A DNA stretch of 64,000 bases from IMG/VR virus record IMGVR_UViG_3300028797_000005, positions 1 to 64,000 of that record; one strand, given 5' to 3'. Each line of letters opens with the position of its first letter. Position 1 is the first letter of the stretch. This stretch comes from a virus. Its lineage: Duplodnaviria > Caudoviricetes. A program made the position numbers and the translations under genes. Of this stretch, positions 21,761 through 38,486 are shown piece after piece. A model generated the notes under the pieces. The model was not told the DNA's origin and made no database searches. It saw nothing but the letters and a program-made list of their open reading frames with translations.

Positions 21761-21834
21761 TGGAGCGGCTAAGGGGTAACGATCCCCTTGCTTCACGTTG
21801 GCAACGTGATGTGTTTCCTTTATACCATAGCCGC
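21761..21834 (-). tRNA. tRNA-Gly(GCC)
   Basis: cloverleaf, U73, CCA. Confidence 0.85.
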
Positions 21835-21837
21835 ATC

Positions 21838-22023: not shown

Positions 22024-22044
22024 GTATTAACTCCTTAAAAAGAA

Positions 22045-22121
22045 TGGCACGGGCCGAGGGATTTGAACCCATCATCTTACGGTTTTGGGGACCGCCATTT
22101 TACCAATTAAACTAGACCCGC
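22045..22121 (-). tRNA. tRNA-Trp(CCA), C33
   Basis: loop CCCCAAA, G73, CCA. Confidence 0.85.
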
Positions 22122-22124
22122 ATA

Positions 22125-22217
22125 TGGCGCGGACGGTGGGATTTGAACCCACGCATCGGATTAAACCGATCTAACGCTTTAGCAGAGCGCCCTCTTTAGC
22201 CACTTGAGTACATCCGC
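22125..22217 (-). tRNA. tRNA-Ser(GCT)
   Basis: cloverleaf, long variable arm, CCA. Confidence 0.9.
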
Positions 22218-22218
22218 A

Positions 22219-22296
22219 TGGAGAGCAGTACAGGATTCGAACCTGTGAATTACTTGTTTTGCAAACAAGCCCAATCGACCACTCTGGCAACTGCCC
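22219..22296 (-). tRNA. tRNA-Cys(GCA)
   Basis: cloverleaf, U73, CCA. Confidence 0.88.
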
Positions 22297-22299
22297 ATA

Positions 22300-22381
22300 T
22301 GGTGGACCATGCGGGATTCGAACCCGCGTCTTCAGCAGTCCGCTTTGGGTTTAAGCTGAATCGAACGCCCATCGATGGCCC
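22300..22381 (-). ncRNA. mini-tmRNA-like RNA: tRNA-like domain only
   Basis: GGGCCAT..TTCGA-TTCAGC/GCTGAA-GAC-GCGGG-TTCGAAT-CCCGC-ATGGTCC-ACCA; G3-U70; no D stem, no anticodon, no tag ORF. Confidence 0.75.
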
Positions 22382-22716: not shown

Positions 22717-23511
22717 TTAAGATGGGTCAGATACTTCAAAAGTTAAAGAACGGACATATACTACAACAGGGGTATTTGCTGTATTATTTGAGGTAAAACT
22801 ACTTCCTTTAAAGCCTATTCTTAATGTTCCATCAACACATAATAATACTGCATTATCATCTAAAAGAGTAGGTGTTAATGAAGATGTACCATTAAGAAGA
22901 CCCCCTGGACTTCTAAAATCCCCTGTTATAGATACGTTAGAAATTTCTTGGTCAGATTTAATTGGAGCAGGTAATGGAATATTAATATATAACGCTGGAG
23001 AAGTCCCTGAACCAAAATAACCATAGGCAAACCATGGTTTAGTACTAGAGGCGCTTAAAGTAACTGTTTGATTCTCATATGGTACAGTAAGAATAGTTGG
23101 GTCAAATTTCCAAAAATAACTTCCTGCTGTATTATTTGTATAATCTCTTAAACCTATAACTTTGCTTCCTATATAAAGCCTAAGGCCTCCATCGGTTATA
23201 GGATTATTTGTAGTTCCAAAACCAAAATAATTTCCAAAAGTAGCATTATTAAAACCATTCCAATACGAAAAAGTATAAGGCGTTGATGTATTAGCTAATC
23301 CAAATGACCAATAAGTTTCAGGCGCTCCAGACCCACCAGAGGTAGGAGTCTGTACATAAATATGATCTAACTTGTCCTTTTCAGATGTAGCTATACTAAT
23401 AGCATTACTGGCGTTAATTGCAATACCGCCACCAGCTGATATTTTATACTCATATATTGAATTTAAATTTGTAACTAATCTAGTCACACCATTAGCATCA
23501 AGAAATGCCAT
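22717..23511 (-). CDS. putative fibre tip/receptor-binding protein
   Basis: FLDANGVTRL N-terminus, G/S/T-rich, cluster context. Confidence 0.6.
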   Translation of the reverse strand: MAFLDANGVTRLVTNLNSIYEYKISAGGGIAINASNAISIATSEKDKLDHIYVQTPTSGGSGAPETYWSFGLANTSTPYTFSYWNGFNNATFGNYFGFGTTNNPITDGGLRLYIGSKVIGLRDYTNNTAGSYFWKFDPTILTVPYENQTVTLSASSTKPWFAYGYFGSGTSPALYINIPLPAPIKSDQEISNVSITGDFRSPGGLLNGTSSLTPTLLDDNAVLLCVDGTLRIGFKGSSFTSNNTANTPVVVYVRSLTFEVSDPS

Positions 23512-23523
23512 TTATTTTCTCCT

Positions 23524-23925
23524 TTATACTAAATCCCAGCCGTATACACCTGGCTGCCAAACATTATTATCAACAATACTTATATAAATTGAACCTTGCT
23601 TATCAGGGTAGTATACCTTATCACCAGTTTGATAGGCATCTTGCGCGCCAGTAGGTTGTACCCATACTGGTATTTCTCCTGGCAAAGCTACTGGTGTAAA
23701 AAGAGCTGGAACCATGGGTGGCTCCCAACCATTTTGTGAAGTATGCGCTTGAACTACTCTATATAATACATTATCATATCTAATACGCTCATCAACAGTA
23801 TAGTCAACTCCAGCTTGCCATAAAGGATAAAGTTCTATGGCCGCGAGGGCATCTGTATCAGATAAACTTGTAGCTGCTTTTTCTATAATTTTTCTTAATA
23901 AAATTGCCTTTCTACGAGTAATCAT
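23524..23925 (-). CDS. carbohydrate-binding (CBM5/12-like) tail accessory protein
   Basis: W.AGVDY..DERIRY..LYRVVQAHTSQ..W.P; WVQPTGAQDAY..GDKV. Confidence 0.75.
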   Translation of the reverse strand: MITRRKAILLRKIIEKAATSLSDTDALAAIELYPLWQAGVDYTVDERIRYDNVLYRVVQAHTSQNGWEPPMVPALFTPVALPGEIPVWVQPTGAQDAYQTGDKVYYPDKQGSIYISIVDNNVWQPGVYGWDLV

Positions 23926-24146
23926 AACTGTTCTCCTAAAAGTATACGCATAGCTTCTTCAGGGTCAATTTGTTCTTCATCCTCTTGAATTGGAATTAAT
24001 TCTCCTTCAGTATAAGTGCGTTCTATACCTACAGGATGGTAAGCTTCTTCATATACAGCCCCATCACAAACAATATAACGGCTTTCATCAGAATAAACAT
24101 ATACATAAGTAGTCCCTTTAATTATTCTTTCTTCAGTTTTAATCAT
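23922..24146 (-). CDS. small tail-fibre accessory/chaperone-like protein
   Basis: context. Confidence 0.55.
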   Translation of the reverse strand: MIKTEERIIKGTTYVYVYSDESRYIVCDGAVYEEAYHPVGIERTYTEGELIPIQEDEEQIDPEEAMRILLGEQL

Positions 24147-24148
24147 TT

Positions 24149-25918
24149 TTATTCACCCACCATTTGAGAAGCATAAGTTGACCAGTTATCTGCAGTTTTG
24201 TATGTGTTAAGCGATGCTGACGGAACATAAAAAACTGCGTTAGGCGATATACTAGAAAAAGCATTTACATTTGATAATGTAGGCGGGTTAGTTGCTTTTA
24301 TATGAATGGCTGCAAGGCCATAACAACAATAAAAAGCTTGAGCCTCAATGGTAGTAATAGAAGATGATAATGTTATAGAAGATAAAGCTCTACAATAACT
24401 AAAAGCACCGCTCTTAATTGTTGTTATATTAGAAGGAATAGTTATTTTCCTTAATGAATAACAGTAACTAAACGCATTAGCTCCTAATGTTGTAACAGTA
24501 GTTGTTGTTGGTAATTCTATATTAGTTAATGAGTAACATGATTGGCAAAAACCTGTAGAACTAGCACTATTTAATTTAGATAAATTAATAGACTGTAAGC
24601 TATAACATGCAGCAAAAGCGTTATTACCAATACTAGTAATTTTTGACGTGTTAATTGAACTAAAATGACAATAACCTAAACCACCAGTCCCAATAGTAGT
24701 AATATTATTTAAATCTATGCTCGTTAACCAAGTAGCTCCATAAAAAGCATAATCTCCCATTTGTGTTACTGTATTAGGCATTCCATTTATTGCAGTAATA
24801 TCTTGTTGTGAACGACAAAGACTTGCAGGAATAGTAGTAGCATTACTTTCTAAAAGACTAGACATATTAATTTCATTCTTTTTAATTATAAAATTTTTAC
24901 TTTTTGCAAATCCAACTCTTTTGGCTCTAAAAGGATAATTCGATAAAGATAAGGCTGAAACGTTCATATATGAGTTTATACCTATTGATATAGATGTTAA
25001 ATTAACAGTATTATCAAATATAGCACCAACACTAGAAATTTCTTTTGGAAAAGACATATATTTTAAATTATAACAACTACTAGTTGCAGAATTATTTACT
25101 GCATAACTACTTTGTTTTGGAAAAATCATAGCTATTAAATTATAACAATTATAAAAAGTATTACCGCCTACAGTATTCGTAGAGCCGATTGAGACCGCTT
25201 TTAAATTAACTAGATAAGCACACCCATAAGACCCAATAGCAATATTCGAACCAAGTCGTATATAATTAACTGCTGATGAATATACATAATTATAATTAAG
25301 ACTAGTATTCTGTGCATTTAATAATGGATAGGTACTACTTCCAAGTAATGCTAAAGTTCCACTATCAATACTAATTTTTATTGTATAATTTCCTGGAGCA
25401 GAATAATTATGCTGTGTTCTAACTTGAGTAGTTAAACTACTTCCAGTAACAGTGCTAGTTGTTCCATCACCCCATTCTACTGTACAAGTCCCTTTTGGTC
25501 CAAGGGCTAAGTATGGACTCAATGCACCTTCAAGTAATTCAATATCAATTTCTGTTTTTCCAGAAGATGTATGATACATCTGTCCTACATCTAAAATACC
25601 ACAAGCTTCAACTTGTTCTTTTGCGTCTGCTAATGTCCAGTTCCACCCTTCGGCAACTAATCCAGTATGACTTGGATTAGCAGGTAAAGCCTCTAAGGCA
25701 AGAAATTCCTCAGCACTATAACTATATAATATTGTCCCATCATAATCAATAAATCTAACCGCATCAGCTGGAGGTAATTCTGTGCCGCTAATCTTTCCTA
25801 TCTCCGTAGCAAATTGACTAGGATACATAGTTGCTGATTTACCTGTTTTAGCCCTAATAGCATCAGCAGTATTTTGTAGAGTAATTTCATCTACTGTTAC
25901 ATAACTTGCTCTTGACAT
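24149..25918 (-). CDS. BspA-type leucine-rich-repeat fibre/adhesin protein
   Basis: repeated ITTI...AF..C..L..I units; VEWGDG PKD-like domain. Confidence 0.85.
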   Translation of the reverse strand: MSRASYVTVDEITLQNTADAIRAKTGKSATMYPSQFATEIGKISGTELPPADAVRFIDYDGTILYSYSAEEFLALEALPANPSHTGLVAEGWNWTLADAKEQVEACGILDVGQMYHTSSGKTEIDIELLEGALSPYLALGPKGTCTVEWGDGTTSTVTGSSLTTQVRTQHNYSAPGNYTIKISIDSGTLALLGSSTYPLLNAQNTSLNYNYVYSSAVNYIRLGSNIAIGSYGCAYLVNLKAVSIGSTNTVGGNTFYNCYNLIAMIFPKQSSYAVNNSATSSCYNLKYMSFPKEISSVGAIFDNTVNLTSISIGINSYMNVSALSLSNYPFRAKRVGFAKSKNFIIKKNEINMSSLLESNATTIPASLCRSQQDITAINGMPNTVTQMGDYAFYGATWLTSIDLNNITTIGTGGLGYCHFSSINTSKITSIGNNAFAACYSLQSINLSKLNSASSTGFCQSCYSLTNIELPTTTTVTTLGANAFSYCYSLRKITIPSNITTIKSGAFSYCRALSSITLSSSITTIEAQAFYCCYGLAAIHIKATNPPTLSNVNAFSSISPNAVFYVPSASLNTYKTADNWSTYASQMVGE

Positions 25919-25928
25919 CTATGTCCTC

Positions 25929-28490
25929 CTAGTATTGAATATTATTTCCATTTGCTACTGTAACTGCCGCGGCAACAGCATTATCAATTTCAGTATTGGT
26001 AAGAGCTGAAACAAGACCATCTACGTAAGCTTTATTTGCGACGTCTGTATTGTTGGTTGGTGTAACTACATTTTGAATAGTTACTCCACTGCTCCCCTGT
26101 GAAGAAATTAAAACACCATATGTATTTACCGCAACTGTTGAAACAGAATCACCTTGAGAAATCATTTCAAGAGTAGCTATATCAGAACTAATAAAGACGC
26201 TTCCTTGTACACTGGCATTATTATTTATACTTGTTAATAGTACTCCATCGCCACCCGAATTGTAAATATGAGATTCATAATTGCCATCTATTATATTAAC
26301 ATCGACTTTACCAGAAATATCTACAGCCGCAGTTGATTTGCATACAAAATAATAATATGAACTACTATATATAAAAGTAACAGTTTCTCCTGCATCCCAT
26401 AATAATGTATTGCTTGAAGAAGTTGCCGCATTATTATAATAAATTGTTTTTGCTCCAGTACTATTTACATTTAATGTAATGGCCGATCCAGTTACTGTAT
26501 TAGCTGTACTAAATGTTATAGATACTAATGATCCAGGCGTAAGCACATAGTTATCAATAGTTGATGTTTTAGCAGCAGTAGTTGCTACAGTAGAAGAAGT
26601 ACCATACCAAGTATTTGCTCCTCTAGGTGGTACGAGAGCTCCTGGAGAAATAGCAGTTATATACCTATAACCTGAACCATCATACATAAAATACAGCATA
26701 GAATTAGCCGACCACTTTAATACATTTGTCGTAGCATTCGGCGTGTCAGATCCGAGATGGATGTTTTTAGCACCAGTACTATTAACATTTAGTGTTGGCG
26801 TTGCTGCGGTATTTGCTGTTGAAAAAAGAATTCCAATAATAGATCCCGCCTGTAATGTATAACCAGAACAAGTTACAACCTTAGCTGCTGTACTATTTGT
26901 TGTACTACTAGTTCCATACCACACCATCTGCGATGCTTTACCATTCCAATTAGTAATATCACTAGCGCTAATGCCATGCGCTGCAGAAGCCGTAAATACT
27001 GGATCAGTTTCAGTATAACTAGTAAGATAAGTACCGCTTAAATCTGGAATATCTGCTGCAACCAATGCTCTAAAACTTGGTGCAGCCGCAGTTGTCCCAG
27101 AACTTGGACCAGCTAAGACATAATGTGGCGTTTTAGTCCCATAAGGATTTTTAGTATCGCCATAAGCGTCAGCGAGCGAAATAGTTGTGTTCAAGGAAGC
27201 TGTCTGTTCGGTTGAAGTGCTTGACTGAACAGGAGAAGTGGCTTGAACTCTAACAGAAGTAACTGTACCTGTGTTAGAAGTCTTTCCATTCCAATTTGTA
27301 ATATCGCTTGAAGAAATACCAGCCGCTGCAGACGCACTAAATACAGGATCTGTTTCAGTATATGAAGCTTTAGTCTTACATATAAAATAATATCCAGTAC
27401 CATCATACATAAATGTTACTGTTTCATTAGCGTCCCATAATAAGGTATTAGTTGAAGAAGTTACAGCGTTATTAGCATAGACATCTTTTGCACCAGTGCT
27501 ATTAATATTAAGTGTAATCTTTCCACTTTTATATGTATTGGCTGCGCTAAAAGTAATACTAATTAATGAACCTTTTGTTAATACATAATTATCAATAGTA
27601 GAAGTTTTAGCTTGTGTTGATGCACCGGTAGAGCTCGTGCCATACCAGGTATTTGCCCCACGAGAAGGTACTACATCTCCAGCTGATATTGAAGTAATAT
27701 ATCTATAATATGTACCATCGTACATAAAATAAATCATAGTATTAGTTGACCATTTTAATACGTTTGTTGTACTATTTGGTGTAGAGTTTCCAACATAAAT
27801 ACTCTTAGCAGTTGTACTATTAATATTTAATGTTGGTGTTGCAGCTGTATTTGCAGCAGTGAATAAAACACCGATAATAGACCCAGCTTGTAATGTATAT
27901 CCCAAACAAGATACAGCTTTTTCTGCAGTGCTTGCCGTTGTGCTACAAGTTCCACACCACAACATATAAGATGCCTTACCATTCCAATTTGTAATATCAG
28001 ATGATGTGATCCCTGCAGCGGCTGATGCGCTGAATACTGGATCAGATTCTGAAAATGCTGTTCCATAAGATGCGATATGACCTTCTGCATCAATTGTAAT
28101 TGGGTATACTGCTTGAGTTGATTGTGCAGTTACTGAATTACTATGATTGAACTCTGTACCGCTTAAGCTTAAACCGCTACCCGCTGAATACGCTGTGCCT
28201 TGTGGAATATTTACCCAAGTTCCGGCTTGTGATAAATACTTAGAGGAATTGCCAGTTCCGGTATCGAATGAAATTGATGTTCTTGCAACCTTATTGCTAT
28301 TACTAGAATCCGTAACAACTAATTTATCTCCAGTTGCTATCGCAACATCAGTGGTTTGTAGAGTACCCCCACTTTGAATATTGCCATGCGTATGATCCGG
28401 CAAACTATGGAGCGCATCTGGGTCCACCACTTTATAGGAAGTATTTCCTATAGTTAAATAATTCATATCTCCACTTGAAGTAACTGCCAT
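25929..28490 (-). CDS. tail-fibre-like protein with internal repeats
   Basis: four WYGT..AK...TLN.NSTGAK units; three E(S/T)DPVF.ASAA.GI..SDITNWNGK units. Confidence 0.75.
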   Translation of the reverse strand: MAVTSSGDMNYLTIGNTSYKVVDPDALHSLPDHTHGNIQSGGTLQTTDVAIATGDKLVVTDSSNSNKVARTSISFDTGTGNSSKYLSQAGTWVNIPQGTAYSAGSGLSLSGTEFNHSNSVTAQSTQAVYPITIDAEGHIASYGTAFSESDPVFSASAAAGITSSDITNWNGKASYMLWCGTCSTTASTAEKAVSCLGYTLQAGSIIGVLFTAANTAATPTLNINSTTAKSIYVGNSTPNSTTNVLKWSTNTMIYFMYDGTYYRYITSISAGDVVPSRGANTWYGTSSTGASTQAKTSTIDNYVLTKGSLISITFSAANTYKSGKITLNINSTGAKDVYANNAVTSSTNTLLWDANETVTFMYDGTGYYFICKTKASYTETDPVFSASAAAGISSSDITNWNGKTSNTGTVTSVRVQATSPVQSSTSTEQTASLNTTISLADAYGDTKNPYGTKTPHYVLAGPSSGTTAAAPSFRALVAADIPDLSGTYLTSYTETDPVFTASAAHGISASDITNWNGKASQMVWYGTSSTTNSTAAKVVTCSGYTLQAGSIIGILFSTANTAATPTLNVNSTGAKNIHLGSDTPNATTNVLKWSANSMLYFMYDGSGYRYITAISPGALVPPRGANTWYGTSSTVATTAAKTSTIDNYVLTPGSLVSITFSTANTVTGSAITLNVNSTGAKTIYYNNAATSSSNTLLWDAGETVTFIYSSSYYYFVCKSTAAVDISGKVDVNIIDGNYESHIYNSGGDGVLLTSINNNASVQGSVFISSDIATLEMISQGDSVSTVAVNTYGVLISSQGSSGVTIQNVVTPTNNTDVANKAYVDGLVSALTNTEIDNAVAAAVTVANGNNIQY

Positions 28491-28498
28491 TTTTCACC

Positions 28499-29926
28499 TC
28501 ATGTCATTTTCCTATAATTTGTACTTGTGCTAAACAAAGTAGACCAAGTTGAGCTGGCTTGTTCAACCCAAGTTCCATTTATCTTTTTCCAAACTTTTGT
28601 ATATTGTGTACTCCAACTGCCGCTACTCTTCCCATATAGAATCGGAGTTGAGCCACCGCCACCAATGGTAACAGCAATTGTAGCATCGCCGCTAACAGTA
28701 TAACTGTAAGTATAATATTTAGGTGGTGTATAATTAACTGTCCAAGTAATACCAAAAATATGTCCGCCATAATAGCCAACTACAAAGCGTAACTTCGCAG
28801 ATTGCAATTCATCTCTTGTCCATGTGCCAGGACTTGAAATTGTTATGGTAGTATTTGACGTACTTGTAAATTTTTGTGAAGTACTCTTTTGTGTAGTACC
28901 ACTATACAGTATTATTTCAGAATGCGCAGTTGATTCTGTTGTACTTTCTGTAGCACCATAACATTGTACAGTTACTGAGTTAATCGTTGAACCAACCGGA
29001 ATAGAACTAAAATCAAATACAAAATCAGCATAACCTGTATAATTTGTTGAGCTTCCATTTTCTTTTACGTAAGTCCAAGAACCAGAACCCGAACTTGTTG
29101 AACCAGGATTAGCCGCTGTATGTCCAACTGCATAATTGAAGTTATTACCAGTAGATGAAGATGAAGTATAGAAATTCATATTTGTGCCACCAGAAAACCC
29201 AGTTGTAAAGGAATCGGCAGTTGCTTCTATACTTTGTGCTCCAGTATGTGCAGTTAAAGTAACGGCTACCCCATTATTGGTTGCAGTTACAGTATCATTT
29301 ACATTAGTAGGATAAATAGTTAAATTATATGTTTCTCCATCGTGGTATGTAACTGCACCACTAGGCTCAATAGTACCATTACCAGTTAATGTAGTCGTTA
29401 TAGTGCGTGCAGGACTTGTACTATAAGTAACATTAATTTCAGCACCATAGATGTAGATATATGCTGCCGTTCTTGAAGAAGAACGCCTAACCGGAATACG
29501 AATAGCAAAGTTATTGCCATATCCTGACATCGTATCCCAAGTCAAATCACCAGTTGGAATTGTATATGTACCAGGAGTGCTACTACTAGTAATATCACTT
29601 TCACAAGTTGTACTTGAAATTGAAGTCCAAGAATTGCCGTTTTTATGATATAACGACATTCTATATGAAGAACCAGTAGCTTGACCGCTCGATCTAGCTT
29701 TTAACTTAACTTCAAATGCGGTAACAGTTGCTCCAGAGGGAATACTGTCAAAATTAAAATTATGTAAATATAAATAATAAGCTGTTGAGTTATTACTTCT
29801 TGTATGTTGTAAAGTAGCATAAGTAGTATTATCAGTATTATTATACATACGATCGCCATTCGTAACGCTCGTATATGAAGTACTACTTTGAGTGTAAGAA
29901 GCGGCTACTAATCTTGACGTTGCCAT
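28499..29926 (-). CDS. putative receptor-binding protein with two related beta-sandwich domains
   Basis: F.F.SIP.G.T twice; C-terminal YGK.SGSW...VWKKINGTW. Confidence 0.65.
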   Translation of the reverse strand: MATSRLVAASYTQSSTSYTSVTNGDRMYNNTDNTTYATLQHTRSNNSTAYYLYLHNFNFDSIPSGATVTAFEVKLKARSSGQATGSSYRMSLYHKNGNSWTSISSTTCESDITSSSTPGTYTIPTGDLTWDTMSGYGNNFAIRIPVRRSSSRTAAYIYIYGAEINVTYSTSPARTITTTLTGNGTIEPSGAVTYHDGETYNLTIYPTNVNDTVTATNNGVAVTLTAHTGAQSIEATADSFTTGFSGGTNMNFYTSSSSTGNNFNYAVGHTAANPGSTSSGSGSWTYVKENGSSTNYTGYADFVFDFSSIPVGSTINSVTVQCYGATESTTESTAHSEIILYSGTTQKSTSQKFTSTSNTTITISSPGTWTRDELQSAKLRFVVGYYGGHIFGITWTVNYTPPKYYTYSYTVSGDATIAVTIGGGGSTPILYGKSSGSWSTQYTKVWKKINGTWVEQASSTWSTLFSTSTNYRKMT

Positions 29927-29935
29927 CTACTCACC

Positions 29936-32386
29936 TCACGTTTGTAAATATAAGTCTCCATTATTCCCTAATGAAGAACTTGGAGCAGATGAACCTGTAT
30001 AATAATTCTGAAGCACAACACTACCACTTACGCCAAATATAGATTTTCCTGAAATAATATTACCAGCTACTAAGTTAGCATCGCCGCTAATTGTCTGAGT
30101 CCCAGTAAGATAAGTACCAGAAGCAATAGTCTGATTTGTAGTAGTTGGCGTAATTGTGGCTGCCGCCTTAGTGGTAACACTTGCAGTAAGTGTAACAGTA
30201 GCTGTACTTGCCGTTGCGCTCGAAACATAACCAGCACTAACTGTCGGCGTAGTAGTTACGCCAGTCTTGGTAAGTGTCAAGGTATTTGTACCAGTACTTA
30301 CTGTGGCGCTACTTCCGCTCAATGAAGAAGGACCGGTTGCAGAACCGTTAGCAACTGCGCTGATTGTATAATAACCACCAGCTGTATTATAGCCAGGAGG
30401 AATGTTTATATATTGTGCGGACGTAGACCTGCCAATTGTCGCCTTACTTGTATAGCCGCTCGTAGCACTTGCAGAAGCCGAAGTTGGCAAGGTCATTGTA
30501 TCTACATCTTTTGTAGTTTGTGCAGTATAATATCCGGCTGGAATCGTAACTGTCTTACCACTAGCCGTAGGTGTTGGATTAATTGTGGCAGATGCAGTAA
30601 GAGTAACTGTTGCAGTACTTGCCGTAGCTGAAGCAACATAGCCAGCAGATACTGTTGGAGTTGTACTAACACCTGTCTTAGTCAATGTAATCGTACCGGT
30701 TCCTGTTGAGATTGTAGCGCTGCTTCCGCTCAATGAAGAAGGACCCGTTGCAGATCCAGAAGTAACTGATTTAGTTGCTTGTTCAGCATAATAGCCTGCA
30801 GGAGCAGTAACTGTCGCTCCACTCGCACTTAAATCAGTTGAATCATTTCTATCAATTCCAGAGCCGACATAGGTACTTGAAATTGCTTCTACTACAACTG
30901 GTTTATATCCGTCAACACTTGAGCTATTATAAGTCTGTTCTGATTCTGTCGGCGTTACTGTTAATGAATCGATCACGGCACCAGCACCAGAATAGCTGCC
31001 AGTAACACCGAAAATTGATACACCATTCTTAATATTACCGGCCACGAGATTAGCATCTCCTAAAATTGTTTGAGTACCAACTAAATATATCCCAGAATTA
31101 ATTGTCTGATCGGTCGTTGTAGGAGTAATTGTTGCCGCTGTCTTTGTAAAAATGGAACTTGTAAGAGAAACCCTCGCGGTTGTTGCTGTACCACTACTAA
31201 TATATCCTGCTGTAGTAACAACTGGCGTTATAGAAATATCACTACTAAGCGTTATAGTATCAGTGTTGATATTTTTAGCTGAATTAGAATCGCTAATAGT
31301 CGCTGGAGCAGTAACACTACCGCTTGGCATAGCTTCGACTATGACTGGTTTATAACCGTCTACGCTTGAACTATTGAAAGTCTGCTCAGATGTAGAAGGA
31401 GTTACTGTTAAGGAACTGATAGTAGGACTTCCACCGCCGCCGGAATAATTACCAGTTACTCCGAAAATTGATACGCCATTTTTGATGTTGCCAGCGACTA
31501 AATTGGCATCTCCCGAAATTGTCTGAGCGCCAGTTAAATAAGTTCCACTTGCAATACTTTGATTCGTAGTAGTTGGAGTGATCGTTGCAGCCCCTTTAGT
31601 TGTCACAGAGGCCGTAAGTGAAACGCTTGAATTACCAGCTGTACCACTACTAATATAGCCCGCCGTAACGCTCGGCGTGACTGATATAGTTTTGCTCAAT
31701 GTAAGAGTATTCGTTCCAGTGCTTACAGTTGCACTCGAACCACTAATTGTGGCTGGCGCAGTTGCAGAACCATTAGCTACTGCATTAATTTTATAATAAG
31801 CTCCTGCTGAATTATATCCAATAGGAATGTTAATATATTGGTCTGAAGTACTTCTACTAACTGTAGCTTTACTTGTATAACCACTAGTAGCACTTGCTGC
31901 TGTGCTAGTTGGTAAAGTCATTCCAGGCATCGCCGTTACAGTAACGGTTCCTAAACCACTATACCCAGAATCTGCAGTAATGCTCTGTTCAGAAGTAGAA
32001 GGATTAACAGTTTTATCTTGATTATTAATTGTACTACCTACACTAACAGTTACACTATTAATTAATGTAGTATCATATGTATTATTACTAGTATAAGTTG
32101 CTGAAGTCTGCGCGGTCAAAGCACCGCTATGGACTACTTTTCCTTCGTCGGCAGCTACATATGAATTAGGAACTGCCACAGCCGCACTAGCATATTGCGT
32201 AACATTATAAGTACCATTAGCGGAGATATTAATGGTCCCGGTTGGTGTAATGCCGCCACCTCCGCTAATGGATAAAATCGCTGCTGCCATCTCTGATGGA
32301 TAATAATCTTCAGATAGGCCAGTCTTTGTTCTAATGGCATCAGCAATATCTTCTAAGTATTGTTCAGTAATTGCTACTTTTGCCAT
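29936..32386 (-). CDS. tail-fibre-like protein with internal repeats
   Basis: three TITPTTT.Q.I.SG.YL.G.QTI.GDANLVAGNI..G.SIFGV units. Confidence 0.75.
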   Translation of the reverse strand: MAKVAITEQYLEDIADAIRTKTGLSEDYYPSEMAAAILSISGGGGITPTGTINISANGTYNVTQYASAAVAVPNSYVAADEGKVVHSGALTAQTSATYTSNNTYDTTLINSVTVSVGSTINNQDKTVNPSTSEQSITADSGYSGLGTVTVTAMPGMTLPTSTAASATSGYTSKATVSRSTSDQYINIPIGYNSAGAYYKINAVANGSATAPATISGSSATVSTGTNTLTLSKTISVTPSVTAGYISSGTAGNSSVSLTASVTTKGAATITPTTTNQSIASGTYLTGAQTISGDANLVAGNIKNGVSIFGVTGNYSGGGGSPTISSLTVTPSTSEQTFNSSSVDGYKPVIVEAMPSGSVTAPATISDSNSAKNINTDTITLSSDISITPVVTTAGYISSGTATTARVSLTSSIFTKTAATITPTTTDQTINSGIYLVGTQTILGDANLVAGNIKNGVSIFGVTGSYSGAGAVIDSLTVTPTESEQTYNSSSVDGYKPVVVEAISSTYVGSGIDRNDSTDLSASGATVTAPAGYYAEQATKSVTSGSATGPSSLSGSSATISTGTGTITLTKTGVSTTPTVSAGYVASATASTATVTLTASATINPTPTASGKTVTIPAGYYTAQTTKDVDTMTLPTSASASATSGYTSKATIGRSTSAQYINIPPGYNTAGGYYTISAVANGSATGPSSLSGSSATVSTGTNTLTLTKTGVTTTPTVSAGYVSSATASTATVTLTASVTTKAAATITPTTTNQTIASGTYLTGTQTISGDANLVAGNIISGKSIFGVSGSVVLQNYYTGSSAPSSSLGNNGDLYLQT

Positions 32387-32387
32387 T

Positions 32388-32642
32388 TTAATACTCCGTT
32401 ATATCAGCGTCGGCGAGTGTGCCGACATTTAAAATAACTTCTTTATCTGTAGCATCATATGTTGCTGTAATTGAGGCATATGAACTGATGACGCCATTTG
32501 CATCAATCGAAATCCCATCGCCACCTGCCTTTACGCCACCCACATTAGATGCGGTGGCAATTCCATGAAGTGCATTGGCATCTTCTACTTCATATATAAC
32601 ATTGTTATATTTAATTTTATCAAATACAGGGTTCGGCATCAT
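32388..32642 (-). CDS. small fibre adaptor-like protein
   Basis: shared N- and C-terminal motifs with neighbours. Confidence 0.6.
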   Translation of the reverse strand: MMPNPVFDKIKYNNVIYEVEDANALHGIATASNVGGVKAGGDGISIDANGVISSYASITATYDATDKEVILNVGTLADADITEY

Positions 32643-32650
32643 TCACCTCA

Positions 32651-34513
32651 TTAACTTAGACTATGTGTATGACCATTATCGGTTACATTATGAGTCTTAC
32701 TTGTGACAACTGTAGTTGCATCTGTATCTTTAATAGGTACTGTTGTATCAGCATCTGCTCTAATCGGAACAGTAACATCAGTAAATGACCAAGTAGATGC
32801 ACTACCAGCTGATGTAACATTTGGAATGAAGGTTGCATCATCAGCCCTGATAGGAACGGTAACATCAGAGAAGCTCCATGTTGAAGCACTACCAGCTGAT
32901 GTAACATTTGGAATACTTGTAGCGTCATCTGCTCTAATTGGAACGGTAACATCAGAGAAGCTCCATGTTGAAGCTGAACCGGCAGAAGTTACATTCGGAA
33001 TACTTGTTGCACTATCAGCGCGAATTGGAACAGTAATGTCTGTAAAACTCCAAGTAGATGCGCTGCCCGCATCCGTTACATTAGGAATACTAGTTGCATC
33101 ATCTGCACGAATTGGAACAGTAACATCTGTAAAGCTCCAAGTAGGTGCTGTGCCATTTGAACCACTCGCTGCACTTGCGGTAGTAGTTGAACTTGTACCA
33201 GTCTTAACGCCTCTAACAGTTGTTGAACCACTAACACCAGTAACACTCGTTGTATTTTCTTGAACACCATAAATACTAATTGCAGTACCAAGAGTAGGTG
33301 CTGTATGAGTGTGAGTATCAGTACCATGAGTAGCTGGAGAAAAACTAATATTTAACTGCTTCGTATCAGTGCTATCCATGGTCATTGATAAACTGCCGCC
33401 TGTAAAAGCGCCTTGGGTAAAACTACCAGAACCTGCCGCTGTTACATTTGGAATACTAGTAGCATTAGTATTTCTAATAGGAACAGTTGTAGCACTTGAC
33501 GCGGCTGTCGGTACTGTTGTATCAGCATCCGCTCTAATTGGAACAGTTACGCTTGAAAAGCTCCAGGTAGAAGCTGTTCCATTAGAACCACTTGCTTTAC
33601 TTGCTGTAGTTGTACTATTAGTTCCAGACTTAACGCCATAAATGCTAATAGGAGTTCCTAATGTTGGAGCTGTTCCATTAGCTCCGCTTGCTTTTGAAGC
33701 AGTTGTTGTACTATTAGTGCCAGATTTTACTCCGTAAATACTAATTGGAGTACCTAAAGTTGGTGCTGTACCATTTGCACCGCTAGCCTTAGAAGCTGTG
33801 GTTGTACTATTCGTACCAGACTTAACTCCGTATATAGAAATCGGTGTTCCCAATGTTGGCGCAGTTCCATTTGCACCACTAGCTTTACTTGCAGTTGTAG
33901 TGCTATTTGTCCCAGACTTAACACCATATATAGAAATTGGAGTCCCAAGTGTAGGAGCAGTTCCATTGCCACCACTAGCCTTGCTGGCCGTAGTTGTGGA
34001 ATTTTCTCCAGTCTTGACTCCTCTAACTGAAGTAGTACTAGCTTGAACACCAGTAATTGATCCAGTACTATGGTCAGCTATTGAAATGCCAGTTGTATTA
34101 CTTGCCGCGGAAGTTGGAATACTTACCGCTGAGCCATAAGCTGAAATATGGCCATTCTTATCTATTTTAATTGGATAAACAGCTTGAGTAGTTTGTGCAC
34201 TAGTAAGAACATTACTATGTCCTACTGTAATTGTCCCGCTAGTTGTAATAGGACTTCCGCTAACTGTTAAGCCGCCATCTGTTGCATTACTAACTCCAAC
34301 ACTTGTAACTGTGCCGCTGCTGAATCCTGAAATTGCCGCCTGAACAAATGCAGTAGTAGCAATTTGTGTAGTGTCTGTACCACTAGCGGCCGTCGGTGCA
34401 GTTGGAGTACCAGTTAAAGCAGGTGAAGCAAGAGGCGCATATCCACTAGTATTGTCCACTATATCATAGGTTGTTCCTTCAACCGTTAATGATTGTATTT
34501 GCGGATTTGGCAT
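32651..34513 (-). CDS. needle-like fibre protein with mirrored repeats and HxH motifs
   Basis: PALTGTPTAPTA..QIATTAFV shaft motif; 32-aa and 29-aa tandem repeats. Confidence 0.75.
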   Translation of the reverse strand: MPNPQIQSLTVEGTTYDIVDNTSGYAPLASPALTGTPTAPTAASGTDTTQIATTAFVQAAISGFSSGTVTSVGVSNATDGGLTVSGSPITTSGTITVGHSNVLTSAQTTQAVYPIKIDKNGHISAYGSAVSIPTSAASNTTGISIADHSTGSITGVQASTTSVRGVKTGENSTTTASKASGGNGTAPTLGTPISIYGVKSGTNSTTTASKASGANGTAPTLGTPISIYGVKSGTNSTTTASKASGANGTAPTLGTPISIYGVKSGTNSTTTASKASGANGTAPTLGTPISIYGVKSGTNSTTTASKASGSNGTASTWSFSSVTVPIRADADTTVPTAASSATTVPIRNTNATSIPNVTAAGSGSFTQGAFTGGSLSMTMDSTDTKQLNISFSPATHGTDTHTHTAPTLGTAISIYGVQENTTSVTGVSGSTTVRGVKTGTSSTTTASAASGSNGTAPTWSFTDVTVPIRADDATSIPNVTDAGSASTWSFTDITVPIRADSATSIPNVTSAGSASTWSFSDVTVPIRADDATSIPNVTSAGSASTWSFSDVTVPIRADDATFIPNVTSAGSASTWSFTDVTVPIRADADTTVPIKDTDATTVVTSKTHNVTDNGHTHSLS

Positions 34514-34523
34514 TATTCACCTC

Positions 34524-35327
34524 CTATGTTGTTGGGAAAAATTCACTATCAATTAAATCAATTAAATCATCATATCTTTGACGCATACAAGATTGAGCAT
34601 CCATTCTATATAATTGCATTTTAATTGTCCAATATGTATTATCTATATCAATATCACCATATCTAGTAGTATCAAAGTATGACGTACTACATCTTGTATA
34701 TAAAATTGGCGTTTTAGGCGTAATGGTAGGACTGGCTGCGCTTGTACTTGAAAGCGCTGGAGTCGGAACGCCGCTATAAAAACCATAAGAAGATGACCAA
34801 GTATAAGTTAGTTTACTACTTGTATTATAATATTGCATCCAGGCTAATGCGGCAGCATTTGTGTAAACATTAGCGTCATCATCTTTAGCTTGAATATTAG
34901 CTAAGCTACTAGGGCGTCTCATAATCTGTTGATCAAATACATTTATTTGTAAAACAGGTAACGCTGTTAAAGTCGCTGTTTCTTTATGAGCTACATGAGA
35001 GGTTACAATCCAACGAATTAAATAAGAATATTGTGCTAAATCTGTTGCTGTAAAAGTTGTAATAGATGCTGATGATCTAAGTGATTTAGCTGTTGTTGAC
35101 GCTGTCCAAGAGCTATATGTCGAACTTGATAAGTTATATGTTAAACTATAATAATTATCATTTAAACAAGTAACATTACTACCCATCCAATCATACGCAC
35201 CGCCAGGAATTGCTGTAATCGCGGCCGCCATATCATTAGGCGCATATCCTATGGTGGTTCCGCTTTTTGATCTAATGGCATTAGCAATATTGGTCATATT
35301 GCTTCTACTAATTAATACCTCTGACAT
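34524..35327 (-). CDS. putative fibre tip protein
   Basis: IANAIRSKSG...PNDMAAAI N-terminus. Confidence 0.65.
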   Translation of the reverse strand: MSEVLISRSNMTNIANAIRSKSGTTIGYAPNDMAAAITAIPGGAYDWMGSNVTCLNDNYYSLTYNLSSSTYSSWTASTTAKSLRSSASITTFTATDLAQYSYLIRWIVTSHVAHKETATLTALPVLQINVFDQQIMRRPSSLANIQAKDDDANVYTNAAALAWMQYYNTSSKLTYTWSSSYGFYSGVPTPALSSTSAASPTITPKTPILYTRCSTSYFDTTRYGDIDIDNTYWTIKMQLYRMDAQSCMRQRYDDLIDLIDSEFFPTT

Positions 35328-35494
35328 TAGAACTCCTCACTATCCGCATTTTCTGCGGTATCGAACACTAACTCTAAGTCTAGGGTAGCGGCTGTATAAG
35401 TGGCAGTTAATTGTTTAGCTCTTGCTGTAGCATCTTTTATATCATATATTGTACCACTTGGTAGTTGAATTTGCTCAATTGTACTATTTGGCAT
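35327..35494 (-). CDS. 55-aa fibre adaptor-like protein (MPNSTIEQIQLPSGTIYDIKD...ENADSEEF)
   Basis: read manually; AAGGAG RBS; TAATG coupling to next gene. Confidence 0.75.
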   Translation of the reverse strand: MPNSTIEQIQLPSGTIYDIKDATARAKQLTATYTAATLDLELVFDTAENADSEEF

Positions 35495-35563
35495 AATTTT
35501 TCAACTCCTTATATGAGTTAAACTTATCCGGAGATAAATCCGGATAAGTTTAACGAAAATTTA

Positions 35564-37201
35564 TTAATCAGTATCTCCACCACGGAAAACAGATACATCA
35601 GTTGAATTATTAAGAACTGTCTTCTGATCTTTACTATTCCAACTAACAGTTGTTCCAGAGGCTGCCGCACTTGCTTTGGCCTGGGTAACACCACTAATGT
35701 ATTGAACTTCATTAACATCTGTCCATTGGCTACGGTCACTACTAGTAGATAATTGAACTGTTGGTTGAGTTACTGAAGAAATACCAGTGGCAACACTAAT
35801 AACTCCTGTGCCAGCTGTCGCGCCAGTTGCAAGGCCCACAGTAGGTTGAGTAATGGTGAAAGTGGAATCTGCGCCAATAACATTGGCCGTTGTCGGACTT
35901 GAATATCCAGTAACAGCACTAAAAGTATCACCAACACTAACATCAGTAACAATATCTGCTCCACTTCCTGTAGTGGTAGTTGAACCAGTTGCTACAGTCG
36001 TTGCAGAAGATGCTGCAGTTGGAACTGTAATTGTACCAGGAGCATCTGCAGAATATGTTGTTTGCGTATCAAGTGTTGCAGCGCCAATAGTAAGTACACC
36101 ATTCGTAACACTAACACCTTTAAGCCAATCGGTATTAGTAGAGCTTGCTGTACCAGTGCCATCAGCTGTTGTCTGGGAAGTTCTTGATTGTATTACACTT
36201 GGCGTAGTGCTACCACTAACACCAGTAACTGTAGTTGTTGCTAATTTTTTCGTTGTTGGTGTAACTGATTTAACAGCACTTTCAGTACTTGGAGTACCTA
36301 ATGCAGTAATAGCCGCTTTCTGATCTTTACTATTCCAAGCCGTGCTACCGCCACTTGCAGTTGCTTTAATATTAGTAGTGGTTGGAGTAACAGCTGTTCC
36401 ACTCGCCGATGCTGTGAAAAACAGTCCTGTACTACCAGTAAGGATATCAATATCACCTGTTGATCCAGTCGATAAAGTAACTGTTGGATTACTTGCAGTT
36501 AAAGTAGAATTTGCACCAATAACATTATCAGTATATTTAACTAATGATACGTCTGTCACAACAGCTCTTAAATCAATTAAAGTATCTCCGATTTTTTCCC
36601 ATTTTTTACTACCGTCTGCTCCTACCGGAACATATTCTTCATATACATCAATGTAAGAACTTGGTGTTTGAACAATAATTTTAGTAGAACCTGTCGTTGG
36701 AGTACCATCATATTCTATTCCATATGTAGTATATAAATTAACTGGCGTAGTAGTATCAGGCGATAAATACCATGATGTACCAATATACTTAAATTCATAT
36801 AAAGTGTTAACACTATAATTGGTAGCATTAGCAAAAGTTGCTGCATTAACTTGAAGATTAGTAATTGGACCATTAGTGTCTACAATTAATTGCGGTTGTG
36901 TTCCAGATTTAACCAAATAAAACGCGCCGGCTTGTGCATGAGCACCAGCGCCTGTGGTTTCAGCTGATAAAGTACCAGTATAACTAGTATCATTATAAAT
37001 AACTGTGACGCCAGCAGGAATTTGTGCAACTTGAGGAGTACTAGCACCATCCCAAGCAATTATAAAAGATACGCCTCCAGCAACCGTCTGACTTAACGCA
37101 TCCACTACGTCTCTAATTTCTCTGTCTGCAATATAGTAAGAATTACCAGAAGGCAAAGTTATTCTTTCAATAACAGGAGTATTTACATCTGAGTATGACA
37201 T
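35564..37201 (-). CDS. tail-fibre-like protein
   Basis: T/S/G-rich; YEEY...KWEKIG; WNSKDQK twice. Confidence 0.7.
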   Translation of the reverse strand: MSYSDVNTPVIERITLPSGNSYYIADREIRDVVDALSQTVAGGVSFIIAWDGASTPQVAQIPAGVTVIYNDTSYTGTLSAETTGAGAHAQAGAFYLVKSGTQPQLIVDTNGPITNLQVNAATFANATNYSVNTLYEFKYIGTSWYLSPDTTTPVNLYTTYGIEYDGTPTTGSTKIIVQTPSSYIDVYEEYVPVGADGSKKWEKIGDTLIDLRAVVTDVSLVKYTDNVIGANSTLTASNPTVTLSTGSTGDIDILTGSTGLFFTASASGTAVTPTTTNIKATASGGSTAWNSKDQKAAITALGTPSTESAVKSVTPTTKKLATTTVTGVSGSTTPSVIQSRTSQTTADGTGTASSTNTDWLKGVSVTNGVLTIGAATLDTQTTYSADAPGTITVPTAASSATTVATGSTTTTGSGADIVTDVSVGDTFSAVTGYSSPTTANVIGADSTFTITQPTVGLATGATAGTGVISVATGISSVTQPTVQLSTSSDRSQWTDVNEVQYISGVTQAKASAAASGTTVSWNSKDQKTVLNNSTDVSVFRGGDTD

Positions 37202-37212
37202 GTTTCATCTCC

Positions 37213-37578
37213 CTAATTTCTATTAAAAATTAATGTCCCATCCACTACTTCTTGTGGATCGTAAACATTTAACTTATTATTCCAAAAAAGTCTATCAGCT
37301 TCACTTATGTGAAGATTTGGATTATTAATATGGTTCATTATAGTATCGCGTAATTCATCATCAATAAATGGTAAATCCTGCACATAAGTTCTGCCGTCCC
37401 CAATTTTAATTCCGGGAACAGTAACGATTTGAATGTAACCACCGACTTCTTTTTGATAAGTTTGATAATCATTATAGATAATTAATTCACCTTGTAATGG
37501 AATAAAACCTCTAGCATTATTCCATGCTTGTGTATTATCTCTCTTAAACTTGATTCTTGTATTTACTGTAGCACTCAT
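37213..37578 (-). CDS. Mtd N-terminal-domain fibre protein
   Basis: RIKFKRD...W.....PLQGE...IKIGDG...DLPF; GAGG RBS before ATG 37578. Confidence 0.75.
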   Translation of the reverse strand: MSATVNTRIKFKRDNTQAWNNARGFIPLQGELIIYNDYQTYQKEVGGYIQIVTVPGIKIGDGRTYVQDLPFIDDELRDTIMNHINNPNLHISEADRLFWNNKLNVYDPQEVVDGTLIFNRN

Positions 37579-37588
37579 ATCATACCTC

Positions 37589-38149
37589 TTAAATAACTGT
37601 GGTACTTGTGCCACATTCTAAAATTAAATCATCTAAAGAAAATTCATAATCATTGAGAACAAGACCATTACCAGCTGTATAATAATCATGCTGCAAAGCT
37701 GAAATATCATTCATAAATGGTAAATCAATCAATAAAGTCTGTCCATCACCAATTTTGAACCCAGGCTGACCATTAAGTGTATCTGTCGTATAATCAGTAT
37801 ACACATAAATATCACCCTGTTTACTAACTAAACTACTTTGAGCGTTCCAGCCAGCTGTGGTATCATACTTAACATTTGAACCTGCGCCATAAAGGATTGC
37901 CCGCGTAGTGCCGTTTTTGTCAGTTACTATAAATTCTACATAATTTTCATGTTGTACGACAACTGCCGTCGGGGAAGTTGCTATAGCAACCAAACCTTCC
38001 CAGTCACAAAGGATTTCTTTTTCATTATTATAAACTTTATATTCTATTGGTTTGTGTACATCAACCGGTAAACATAAAGCATTTCTTTCTTCTTCAATTT
38101 GCATTCTAATGCAAGGCTCTAAATCAGGAACTCTTGTTTTAATTACCAC
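37589..38149 (-). CDS. Mtd N-terminal-like domain fibre protein
   Basis: DTTAGW...GDIYVY...FKIGDG...DLPF; ends LILECGTS. Confidence 0.7.
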   Translation of the reverse strand: MVIKTRVPDLEPCIRMQIEEERNALCLPVDVHKPIEYKVYNNEKEILCDWEGLVAIATSPTAVVVQHENYVEFIVTDKNGTTRAILYGAGSNVKYDTTAGWNAQSSLVSKQGDIYVYTDYTTDTLNGQPGFKIGDGQTLLIDLPFMNDISALQHDYYTAGNGLVLNDYEFSLDDLILECGTSTTVI

Positions 38150-38159
38150 GATGCACCTC

Positions 38160-38486
38160 CTACTCTATTGGAGTAAGAATATCATTAGTAATTGTTTCAC
38201 CAATCTTATAGTTAGAAATACAAGTTTTCCAAGCGGTTCCATCAGCCATAAGGCCGTGGATTTGTACTCTCAATTTTTCCCTTACATTAAAATGAGATGT
38301 TTCTTCTTGAGTCAGCGTCACCATAATAGTGCCCATGTCAGGATTAATGACTACCGAACTATCAACAAAATACTTTTGAATTAGAAAGCTCCCTTGCTGT
38401 ATGTCTATACGGCAATTTGACAAACCAGTAGTATACTTTTGTCCAACCAAACATACGAAGGTCGGAGTAGTTTCAGGCATTATCAT
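38160..38486 (-). CDS. putative baseplate/fibre attachment protein
   Basis: TTPTF...VTLTQEET..F...VQI pattern; first gene of fibre unit. Confidence 0.55.
   Translation of the reverse strand: MIMPETTPTFVCLVGQKYTTGLSNCRIDIQQGSFLIQKYFVDSSVVINPDMGTIMVTLTQEETSHFNVREKLRVQIHGLMADGTAWKTCISNYKIGETITNDILTPIE

Follow-up and report, generated by a model that had tools for sequence, protein, structure and literature searches.

The window, a stretch of 64,000 nucleotides, belongs to a complete 123-kb phage record whose host is probably a gut or rumen anaerobe. It contains a cluster of minus-strand fibre genes whose products are labelled 'hypothetical' in every library; receptor-binding machinery is the least annotatable portion of uncultured phage genomes. 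Read in the direction of the genes, the cluster is preceded by two small proteins of 133 and 186 aa (37213..38149) with a K-I-G-D-G...LPF motif, encoded immediately before the first gene bearing the N-terminal root motif that we call N4. This gene encodes a 545-aa fibre protein (35564..37201), which has no junction tail, had no match in Pfam, PHROG or NCBIfam, and is read as a chain on its own. A mini-connector of 55 aa follows (35327..35494), composed of the N4 motif and an acidic C1 tail (codons 35330-35356), and then a 267-aa protein (34524..35327), in which an A-domain (35199-35327; HMM E 1.2e-16 over residues 1-43) precedes a tip without assigned fold; this protein weakly matched phrog_29123, a PHROG of unknown function. 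The 620-aa fibre (32651..34513) combines N4 with a tail-fibre-like segment at residues 20-65, where the generic tail-fibre PHROGs phrog_2631 and phrog_7032 matched, and with internal repeats, and likewise has no junction tail. Next come an 84-aa mini-connector (32388..32642; N4 motif and C1 tail, the latter at 32391-32417), an 816-aa protein (29936..32386) with an A-domain (32252-32386; HMM E 6.3e-23), repeats and a C2 half-motif at its extreme C-terminus (29939-30010), and a 475-aa distal protein (28499..29926) of a family found after C2 tails. The 853-aa fibre (25929..28490) carries N4 (28401-28490), a C3-like TNTEID segment (25974-26006) and a C1 tail (25932-25958), and the 589-aa protein downstream of it (24149..25918) joins an A-domain (25781-25918; HMM E 5.1e-15) to a BspA-type leucine-rich-repeat tip (PF13306, LRR_5, E 3.3e-41, three stretches). 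A 133-aa protein (23524..23925) with a carbohydrate-binding module (CBM_5_12, E 1.5e-14) and a 264-aa protein (22717..23511) with an N3-like head (23452-23511) complete the series.

A regular expression for the hairpin-like N4 motif retrieved exactly five proteins genome-wide (545, 55, 620, 84 and 853 aa), the same five in which an earlier, sequence-only reading of this DNA had noticed a shared N-terminal motif. That reading had also described the 55- and 84-aa products as pure connectors; both indeed consist of N4 and C1 only, and they belong to a conserved family, other contigs encoding homologues 53 to 57 aa long. The two K-I-G-D-G...LPF proteins are possible sockets for the N4 roots, and contig L024 repeats that order, with a 105-aa KVGDG protein followed by a 411-aa N4 protein. 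Searched with PF00078, the complete 123-kb record yielded no reverse transcriptase and hence no diversity-generating retroelement (DGR), in agreement with the earlier claim.

The three A-domain genes, encoding 816, 589 and 267 aa, begin 1, 10 and -1 nt past the 84-, 853- and 55-aa genes, respectively, and each of these upstream genes encodes a protein with an acidic tail and a terminal Y or F. The shared N-terminal motif (IADAIRTKTG..PSEMAAAI type) previously read in three genes was confirmed in precisely these A-domain proteins, all on the minus strand. The consensus of the C1 tail is hydrophobic-x-[D/N]-[A/G]-[D/E/N]-x3-[Y/F/W]-COOH. When mechanical ORFs of at least 50 aa were screened with the pattern [DNEQS][AG][DEN]xxx[YFW]-end, only 3 of 400 genome-wide fitted, namely the three preceding A-domain genes.

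The same association held in both directions in unrelated viral contigs; all related loci are metagenomic, and many are kin to one another. In a forward test, 46 of 49 unique A-domain genes had an upstream ORF ending at -6 to +30 nt; this ORF ended in Y, F or W in 40 of the 46 (background, 101/1130) and fitted the tail pattern in 33 (background, 7/1130), with a Fisher p of about 1e-46 for the test, whose loci are not independent. Among loci gathered for other motifs, an aromatic end was present in 12 of 14 upstream ORFs. In the reverse direction, a DNA pattern specifying only the tail and an overlapping ATG gave 56 matches in viral contigs, and an A-domain began at that ATG in 30 of them by HMM and in 36 by eye, the base rate of A-domains being about 1% of ORFs within these loci. 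The rule is not absolute: some 15 to 25% of A-domain genes have no canonical upstream tail (for instance in L016, L020 and L023), and similar tails occur elsewhere, in SSB-like proteins, in a 170-aa tail-protein family and in a protein upstream of a baseplate hub.

Two further junction types were recognised. At junction 2, the C-terminal half-motif of one protein is completed by the C-terminus of the next. The C2 half-motif was C-terminal in 66 of 80 loci, and the second half-motif ended 38 of 52 unique downstream proteins, compared with 13 of 358 in the background; another 9 of the 52 were truncated members of the same family. In five proteins both halves are contiguous within a single chain, an arrangement also noted in some collagen-like fibres. 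The pairing of GSSAPSSSLG.NGDLY with YGK.SGSW..WKK.NG.W, which had been proposed from the letters, is present in the 816- and 475-aa proteins and conserved elsewhere; in the latter, two copies of the second half-motif (YxKxxGxW-type) fall within the last 47 residues (28502-28642). Junction 3, a TNxEID tail before a YLDxxGL head, was borne out in about 21 of 24 cases of a first set and in 11 of 14 of a second. The corresponding pair suggested for this genome, LTNTEIDNAV and FLDANGVTRL, stood only in part: both motifs are present, but the genes (853 and 264 aa) are not adjacent, and the TNTEID segment lies 17 residues short of the 853-aa C-terminus. The 264-aa head is the only N3-type head of the genome, and the gene preceding it has no C3 tail. 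Junction 3 is no more than vestigial or non-adjacent here, though present in relatives. One contig (L058/L198) encodes a five-protein chain with junctions 3, 3, 1 and 2 in series. The motifs of three junction types therefore co-occur in adjacent genes of other genomes, the check that had been suggested for the docking idea, and that idea survives it.

As these matching end motifs flank gene borders in many unrelated phages, they probably mark end-to-end joints between fibre subunits. We propose that the cluster encodes several multi-subunit fibres, whose subunits would be joined end to end in gene order via short junction modules, and we put the probability of this reading at roughly 0.65. Five N4-rooted chains would be formed here: 545; 55-267; 620; 84-816-475; and 853-589. 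At junction 1, each A-domain would capture one acidic tail of the upstream protein, either in a basic and hydrophobic pocket or by strand addition, as with SSB tail partners, and a trimeric connector would hold flexibly tethered tips. At junction 2, a small beta motif would be assembled from two halves, the first from the 816-aa end and the second from the 475-aa C-terminus. Stop/start overlaps and ribosome-binding sites embedded in the tails couple the synthesis of partners. The sequences themselves show the motifs, the two-way conservation of their adjacency, protein-level selection, mosaic tips and the fused forms of junction 2; that the proteins physically dock, in what ratio, and where N4 attaches, we infer. 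No covariation of tail variants with A-domain variants was seen by eye, so that this reading offers no account of specificity among the three pairs per virion. The branched fibre with interchangeable tips that had been envisaged earlier is borne out as regards the tips, since the A-domain is found on unrelated distal parts, but not as regards branching, as gene order implies linear chains of 1-3 proteins; tip swapping may influence host range, as that reading supposed.

The A-domain comprises about 45 residues at the N-terminus, among them an invariant Arg, and in most cases leads into a Gly-rich linker. AF2 predicted a strand (residues 3-7) and two helices (8-22 and 30-39) with a pLDDT of about 90. 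The domain matched 11,607 cluster representatives, was N-terminal in about 142 of the best 150, and is attached to unrelated distal parts, giving mosaic tips. No match was obtained in Pfam, NCBIfam or PDB sequences, and PDB sequence searches were empty for the A-domain profile, the N3 profile and the 267-, 475-, 620- and 853-aa proteins. The model was of a related protein with tandem A-domains and an LRR part, and Foldseek and VIA searches with it returned matches to the LRR part only (VIA Z 8.9 to 4h09). Queries of GenBank phage records with A-domains by tblastn gave no match, so that the module was seen in no cultured phage; GenBank matches to the LRR protein came exclusively from uncultured faecal phage records. 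When residues 1-50 of the 267-aa protein were used in a word-indexed protein search, only that protein's own cluster came back, and a bacterial genome scan yielded only 9 loci, all in MAGs. An A-domain and a tail occur together in chain-link proteins, namely P0052, P0134 and the upstream protein in L031; AF2 without alignment modelled P0052 with an uninformative pLDDT of 42.

The position of the A-domain genes invites another explanation, in which their products are assembly factors or tip adhesins of the Tfa/gp38 type that bind the fibre C-terminus transiently or as a cap. In T-even, Mu and P2 phages the tfa or gp38 gene is placed downstream of the fibre gene, and A-domain genes similarly lie right downstream of a fibre gene and are translationally coupled to it; numerous A-domain proteins are moreover small, such as a 173-aa family in L009-L019. 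Numerous others, however, reach 400 to more than 1000 aa with adhesin-like LRR_5 or Ig-like repeats, some bear a C1 or C2 tail of their own followed by another partner, and no chaperone family matched in Pfam, PHROGs or NCBIfam (E 0.01 to 0.1). We consider this explanation unlikely; it too requires binding between tail and A-domain, and to that extent it overlaps with the proposal of end-to-end fibres.

Part of the similarity among tails has a different origin, and here the earlier claim of a shared C-terminal peptide (LADADITEY, VANGNNIQY, AENADSEEF) needs to be divided: the tails are present with their core kept, whereas the E-V or T-E residues represent an embedded ribosome-binding site. 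At the border of the 55- and 267-aa genes, stop and start overlap (TAATG), and GAGGAG in the last codons of the 55-aa gene forms the Shine-Dalgarno site of the 267-aa gene; at the 84-/816-aa border, with its 1-nt gap, GGAG sits in the Thr-Glu codons; and at the 853-/589-aa border, where the genes are 10 nt apart, the 589-aa gene has its Shine-Dalgarno site in the spacer. (A programmed frameshift at the TAATG overlap was considered and rejected, there being no slippery site and no fused form among the 150 best A-domain proteins.) The same held across loci, tail positions -4 to -2 tracking where the Shine-Dalgarno site falls. At -1 overlaps, Val occupies position -3 and is preceded by Glu or Gly at -4 (GAGGTG or GGGGTG), Glu at -4 being encoded by GAG in 9 of 9 cases; with gaps of 1 to 4 nt, Glu moves to -2; and with gaps of at least 8 nt, the site is located in the spacer. 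Tails resemble each other in Glu-Val or Thr-Glu because these codons hold the Shine-Dalgarno site from which the next, coupled gene is translated, a caution that a conserved 'peptide' can in part be a nucleotide signal.

This shift of positions -4 to -2 across gap classes, together with the mosaic distal parts, would fit the view that the shared ends are expression and recombination signals only, bounding cassettes for gene swapping, and that the proteins never touch. Yet the D/N-A/G-D/E core and the terminal aromatic residue are kept across every gap class, including those in which the Shine-Dalgarno site is spacer-borne and so outside the ORF. Third-base identity at the conserved four-fold degenerate sites of the A-domain was 0.32, compared with 0.27 expected from composition, which indicates selection at the protein level, its synonymous sites being near saturation. 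The A-domain is also a confidently folded unit by AF2, and junction 2 occurs as a single contiguous motif in other proteins. We accordingly find a purely nucleotide-level explanation improbable. There is also only a slim chance that each cluster protein is attached to the baseplate independently, with the A-domain, N3 and N4 as alternative anchors and the tails as unrelated trimer caps: a conserved N-terminal anchor with a variable distal part is the rule in phage receptor-binding proteins (Latka et al. 2019, PMC6872550), and N4 is common to five proteins without a conserved upstream tail, but the two-way adjacency of tail and A-domain, the mini-connectors of 53 to 84 aa made of root motif plus tail, and the proteins with both A-domain and tail are left unaccounted for.

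The end-to-end reading can be extended beyond this phage. That an as yet undescribed code for end-to-end assembly, with at least three junction types, is common to the tailed phages of gut and rumen is in our estimation as likely as not; its commonest junction would be an A-domain (>11,000 clusters) capturing the upstream tail. Were this so, the order of genes in uncultured phages could reveal whole fibre architectures, some with as many as five proteins, and the 853-aa protein, with two tail motifs in tandem, could be a genuine branch point. If the junctions were verified, thousands of orphan proteins would receive positions in fibres, scaffold could be told from tip, and the exchange of tips among phages without a DGR would be accounted for.

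A full-text search of the literature with the motif string turned up nothing relevant, and a topical search retrieved known work on branched receptor-binding proteins only. Several known systems nevertheless offer models for parts of the proposal. The C-terminal tip of SSB is reportedly acidic, ends in Pro-Phe and is bound by partner proteins. The C1 tail is similarly acidic with an aromatic end and a free carboxylate, and our DNA pattern also retrieved SSB-like tails; the context of SSB, however, is replication, and the resemblance is chemical only, a model of binding mode and not a family assignment. The long tail fibre of T-even phages is said to be built from gp34-gp35-gp36-gp37, with gp38 as tip adhesin in T2/S16-type phages. 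As there, consecutive genes would encode consecutive segments joined via their termini, the adjacency of genes with matching termini being conserved here, and, as in the gp38 system, a conserved N-terminal attachment part is found on a variable adhesin encoded downstream of a fibre. The junction motifs described here differ in being short, repeated across the chains of one genome and common to thousands of otherwise unrelated proteins; searches of Pfam and PHROGs revealed no homology to gp34-gp38, and the A-domain proteins had no such match. In the lactococcal phages TP901-1 and Tuc2009, the baseplate protein BppU holds trimers of BppL or BppA. The arrangement is alike in that a scaffold grips, by its C-terminal part, the N-terminus of a receptor-binding protein whose gene lies downstream, but a large adaptor domain acts there in place of a terminal peptide, and no sequence matches were found.

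In podophages of Klebsiella and E. coli (KP32, K11, KP34 and K1F), RBP1 provides an anchor and a branching domain, and RBP2 a docking peptide (PMC6872550; PMC13352976). These branched systems share with the present one a short conserved peptide matched to a conserved domain of the neighbour, variable distal parts, adjacent genes and exchangeable modules. The polarity, however, is reversed: here the peptide ends the proximal protein and the folded domain begins the distal one, so that an N-terminal docking peptide on the secondary protein contrasts with a folded strand-helix-helix domain of about 45 residues. Moreover, no sequence relation was found, no cluster protein matched a T4gp10-like branching domain in Pfam, PHROG or NCBIfam, and the gene order suggests chains instead of branches. 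The principle of docking modules with swappable tips has precedents in Klebsiella, Ackermannviridae, T-even and lactococcal phages; what would be new here is not the principle but a very widespread set of modules with a clear rule.

The window covers the initial 64 kb of a viral genome that is complete at 123,246 bp and has direct terminal repeats. Its fibre cluster, a run of tightly packed genes, extends on the minus strand from 38486 down to 22717, with 30 tRNA genes directly downstream on the same strand (11986-22381), lysin genes at 39.4-43.4 kb and replication genes on the plus strand from ~48 kb. In transcription order the cluster encodes proteins of 108, 186, 133, 545, 55, 267, 620, 84, 816, 475, 853, 589, 74, 133 and 264 aa, which are referred to here by length. 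Little in the cluster was recognised by curated libraries, which identified a BspA-type LRR_5 region in the 589-aa protein (E 3.3e-41) and a CBM_5_12 carbohydrate-binding module in the 133-aa protein encoded between this LRR protein and the 264-aa protein (23524-23925; E 1.5e-14); residues 20-65 of the 620-aa protein matched generic tail-fibre PHROGs, and the terminal motifs of the cluster proteins had no match in these libraries.

All the terminal motifs listed by the sequence-only reading were found in the cluster. An N-terminal module of ~45 residues, the A-domain, opens the 816- (29936..32386), 589- and 267-aa proteins, whose genes follow those of the 84- (32388..32642), 853- (25929..28490) and 55-aa (35327..35494) proteins, all on the minus strand, at spacings of 1, 10 and -1 nt, respectively. 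The three upstream proteins end in C1, an acidic tail whose last residue is Tyr or Phe, and the pattern [DNEQS][AG][DEN]xxx[YFW]-end fits exactly these three among 400 mechanical ORFs (≥50 aa, whole genome). The shared N-terminal motif noticed earlier, a hairpin-like root motif termed N4, is confined to five of the genome's proteins (545, 55, 620, 84 and 853 aa). The 55- and 84-aa proteins, which had been regarded as pure connectors, belong to a conserved mini-connector family in which a short middle segment links N4 to C1, with homologues of 53 to 57 aa in other contigs.

The proposed co-occurrence of motifs in adjacent genes holds in other phages for three junctions: C1 with the A-domain (junction 1), a C-terminal half-motif (C2) with a second half-motif in the next protein (junction 2), and a TNxEID-type tail (C3) with a YLDxxGL-type head (N3; junction 3). 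For junction 1, an A-domain scan yielded 38 loci from viral contigs and 9 from bacterial genomes, from which an HMM was built. Among 49 unique A-domain genes analysed with it, 46 were preceded by an ORF that ends within -6 to +30 nt. These ORFs ended in Y, F or W in 40/46 cases versus 101/1130 background ORFs, and fitted the C1 pattern in 33/46 versus 7/1130 (Fisher p ~1e-46, the loci being related to one another). The commonest spacing was a one-base overlap, TAATG or TGATG (22/46), and loci fetched later for unrelated motifs showed an aromatic end in 12 of 14 upstream ORFs. The adjacency was also observed in reverse: a DNA pattern consisting only of a C1-type tail and an overlapping ATG gave 56 matches, of which 30 by HMM, and 36 by eye with weaker variants and truncated ORFs included, had an A-domain at that very ATG, in loci where only ~1% of ORFs carry one. 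C1 is borne by at least 15 unrelated upstream protein families. The other reverse matches comprised SSB-like Pro-Phe acidic tails, a 170-aa tail-protein family, a structural protein upstream of a baseplate hub, and chance matches.

The Pro-Phe acidic tails, found on SSB-like and other replication-region proteins (loci L059, L063, L065, L069, L070, L084, L096 and L102), have the same chemistry as the fibre C1 but a different context. The 170-aa tail-region family (phrog_1194) ends in a C1-like D-A/G-D...Y (L017, L020, L023, L052, L054, L078 and L080) and the next gene encodes a member of another family (440 to 500 aa, conserved N-terminus), which in L020 and L023 itself precedes an A-domain gene; the two families may represent a fourth junction type.

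The tail had been read as one shared C-terminal peptide, and part of it proved to have another origin. The position of its near-end acidic residues varies with the spacing to the start codon of the downstream gene. At the -1 overlap, positions -4/-3 read Glu-Val or Gly-Val, with codons GAGGTG or GGGGTG, and Glu at -4 is encoded by GAG in 9/9 cases; at gaps of 1 to 4 nt, as in the 84-aa gene, Glu lies at -2 and ACGGAG encodes Thr-Glu; at gaps of ≥8 nt, as in the 853-aa gene, the spacer holds the Shine-Dalgarno site, which leaves -4 to -2 free. The E-V/T-E part is therefore the ribosome-binding site of the translationally coupled downstream gene. All spacing classes keep the core, with D/N at -7, A/G at -6 and D/E/N at -5, and the terminal aromatic. 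In the A-domain, conserved four-fold degenerate codons had a third-base identity of 0.32, versus 0.27 expected from composition, so it is the amino-acid sequence that is conserved.

A profile of the three window A-domains matched 11,607 cluster representatives at E ≤0.001 and 1,088 at 1e-10. Among the best 150 proteins the domain is N-terminal in ~142, and 27 carry a second, tandem copy ~55 residues away (P0001, P0005, P0007, P0013 and P0059 included), the two being joined in some cases by a C1-like linker. Two of the best 150 and one locus protein combine an A-domain with a C1 tail and are potential chain links. In P0011 and P0077 the entire A-domain-plus-LRR unit is duplicated. The A-domain has no Pfam, NCBIfam or PDB match by sequence, and its ESM Atlas neighbours are all "hypothetical" viral proteins. 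In an AF2 model of a tandem-domain relative (31-row alignment, mean pLDDT 92), each copy consists of a strand (3-7) and helices 8-22 and 30-39; against solved structures, the LRR part alone matched. The A-domain is mosaic: when it is 60-70% identical between two proteins, any similarity in the remainder is found in only 20% of pairs. ESM Atlas structure neighbours of residues 1-50 of the 816-aa protein include viral clusters with members that carry Mtd second-domain, Big_2, metallophosphatase or tyrosine-phosphatase-like families, which, as 50-residue structure-neighbour matches only, hint at a very wide cargo range. Another recurrent N-terminal motif, NKVxYGxxTLIDLTxDT, present in the upstream proteins of L057 and L003, opens fibre proteins in several loci.

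The C2 motif lies 15 residues before the stop of the 816-aa protein and also closes many further A-domain proteins; scanning with this end segment yielded 80 loci, in 66 of which the motif is C-terminal. A YxKxxGxW-type motif was present in the last 40 residues of 38/52 unique downstream proteins versus 13/358 background proteins, and a further 9/52 were members of the same family truncated by locus ends or in-frame stops; the 475-aa protein belongs to this family. A single protein contains both halves in five loci, where they are separated by a few residues and flanked by collagen-like repeats; this constitutes gene-fusion evidence that the halves make up a single unit. The motif is not covered by any Pfam family. 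Close relatives of the 816-aa gene (L002:6001-8400, L007:6001-8400 and also L006) contain 12 to 15 in-frame TAG codons where the gene studied here encodes Gln, and these phages probably read TAG as Gln in fibre genes; the present genome uses the standard code.

N3 heads (YLDxxGL...KIK) are preceded by TNxEIDxI-type C3 tails in ~11/14 and ~21/24 cases in two locus sets. The C3/N3 pairing suggested for this cluster is thus real in other loci, but here the genes are not adjacent: the genome's only N3-type head belongs to the 264-aa protein, and the single near-terminal C3-like segment lies in the 853-aa protein, 17 residues short of its end. Should the pairing operate in this genome, the 853-aa protein would hold a pair of partners and act as a genuine branch point.

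On a 111-kb contig (L058/L198), consecutive genes encode proteins of 86 aa (C3 tail), 455 aa (N3 head, C3 tail), 699 aa (N3 head, C1 tail), 253 aa (A-domain, C2) and 447 aa (second half-motif), followed by a new N4-headed protein, an order that reads as a five-protein chain with junctions 3, 3, 1 and 2 in series. N4 would open a new chain in every case, because the preceding proteins lack a junction tail, and by these motifs the present genome parses into five putative chains (545; 55-267; 620; 84-816-475; 853-589). The 133- and 186-aa proteins encoded just upstream (37213-38149) carry a KIGDG...LPF motif that resembles the N-terminal regions of HylP or Mtd and recurs near residue 2308 of a 2452-aa protein outside the window (89853-97211 of the full record). 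They are candidate N4 sockets, offered only as a lead; in L024, a small protein similar to them precedes an N4 protein.

We infer from these motif pairings that each junction is a physical contact. At junction 1, the acidic, aromatic-ended tail and an invariant A-domain Arg suggest that the A-domain captures the free C-terminus, as SSB tips are captured, or that the tail adds a strand to its N-terminal strand. The Gly-rich linker after the A-domain suggests one flexibly tethered tip per tail, and coupled translation may help to sort three similar tail/A-domain pairs in one virion. The genome lacks a reverse transcriptase, so any variation of the tips would arise by exchange of modules and not through a DGR, as had been proposed.

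Docking modules with exchangeable tips are known in T-even and lactococcal phages. They are also established in Klebsiella and E. coli podophages (PMC6872550, PMC13352976) and in Ackermannviridae (PMC11414711). The junction motifs described here are unrelated in sequence to those of the known systems and appear to be undescribed in the literature, and the polarity is reversed, the peptide being the proximal C-terminus and the folded domain the distal N-terminus. The present junction set is unusually widespread and yields a simple, testable rule.
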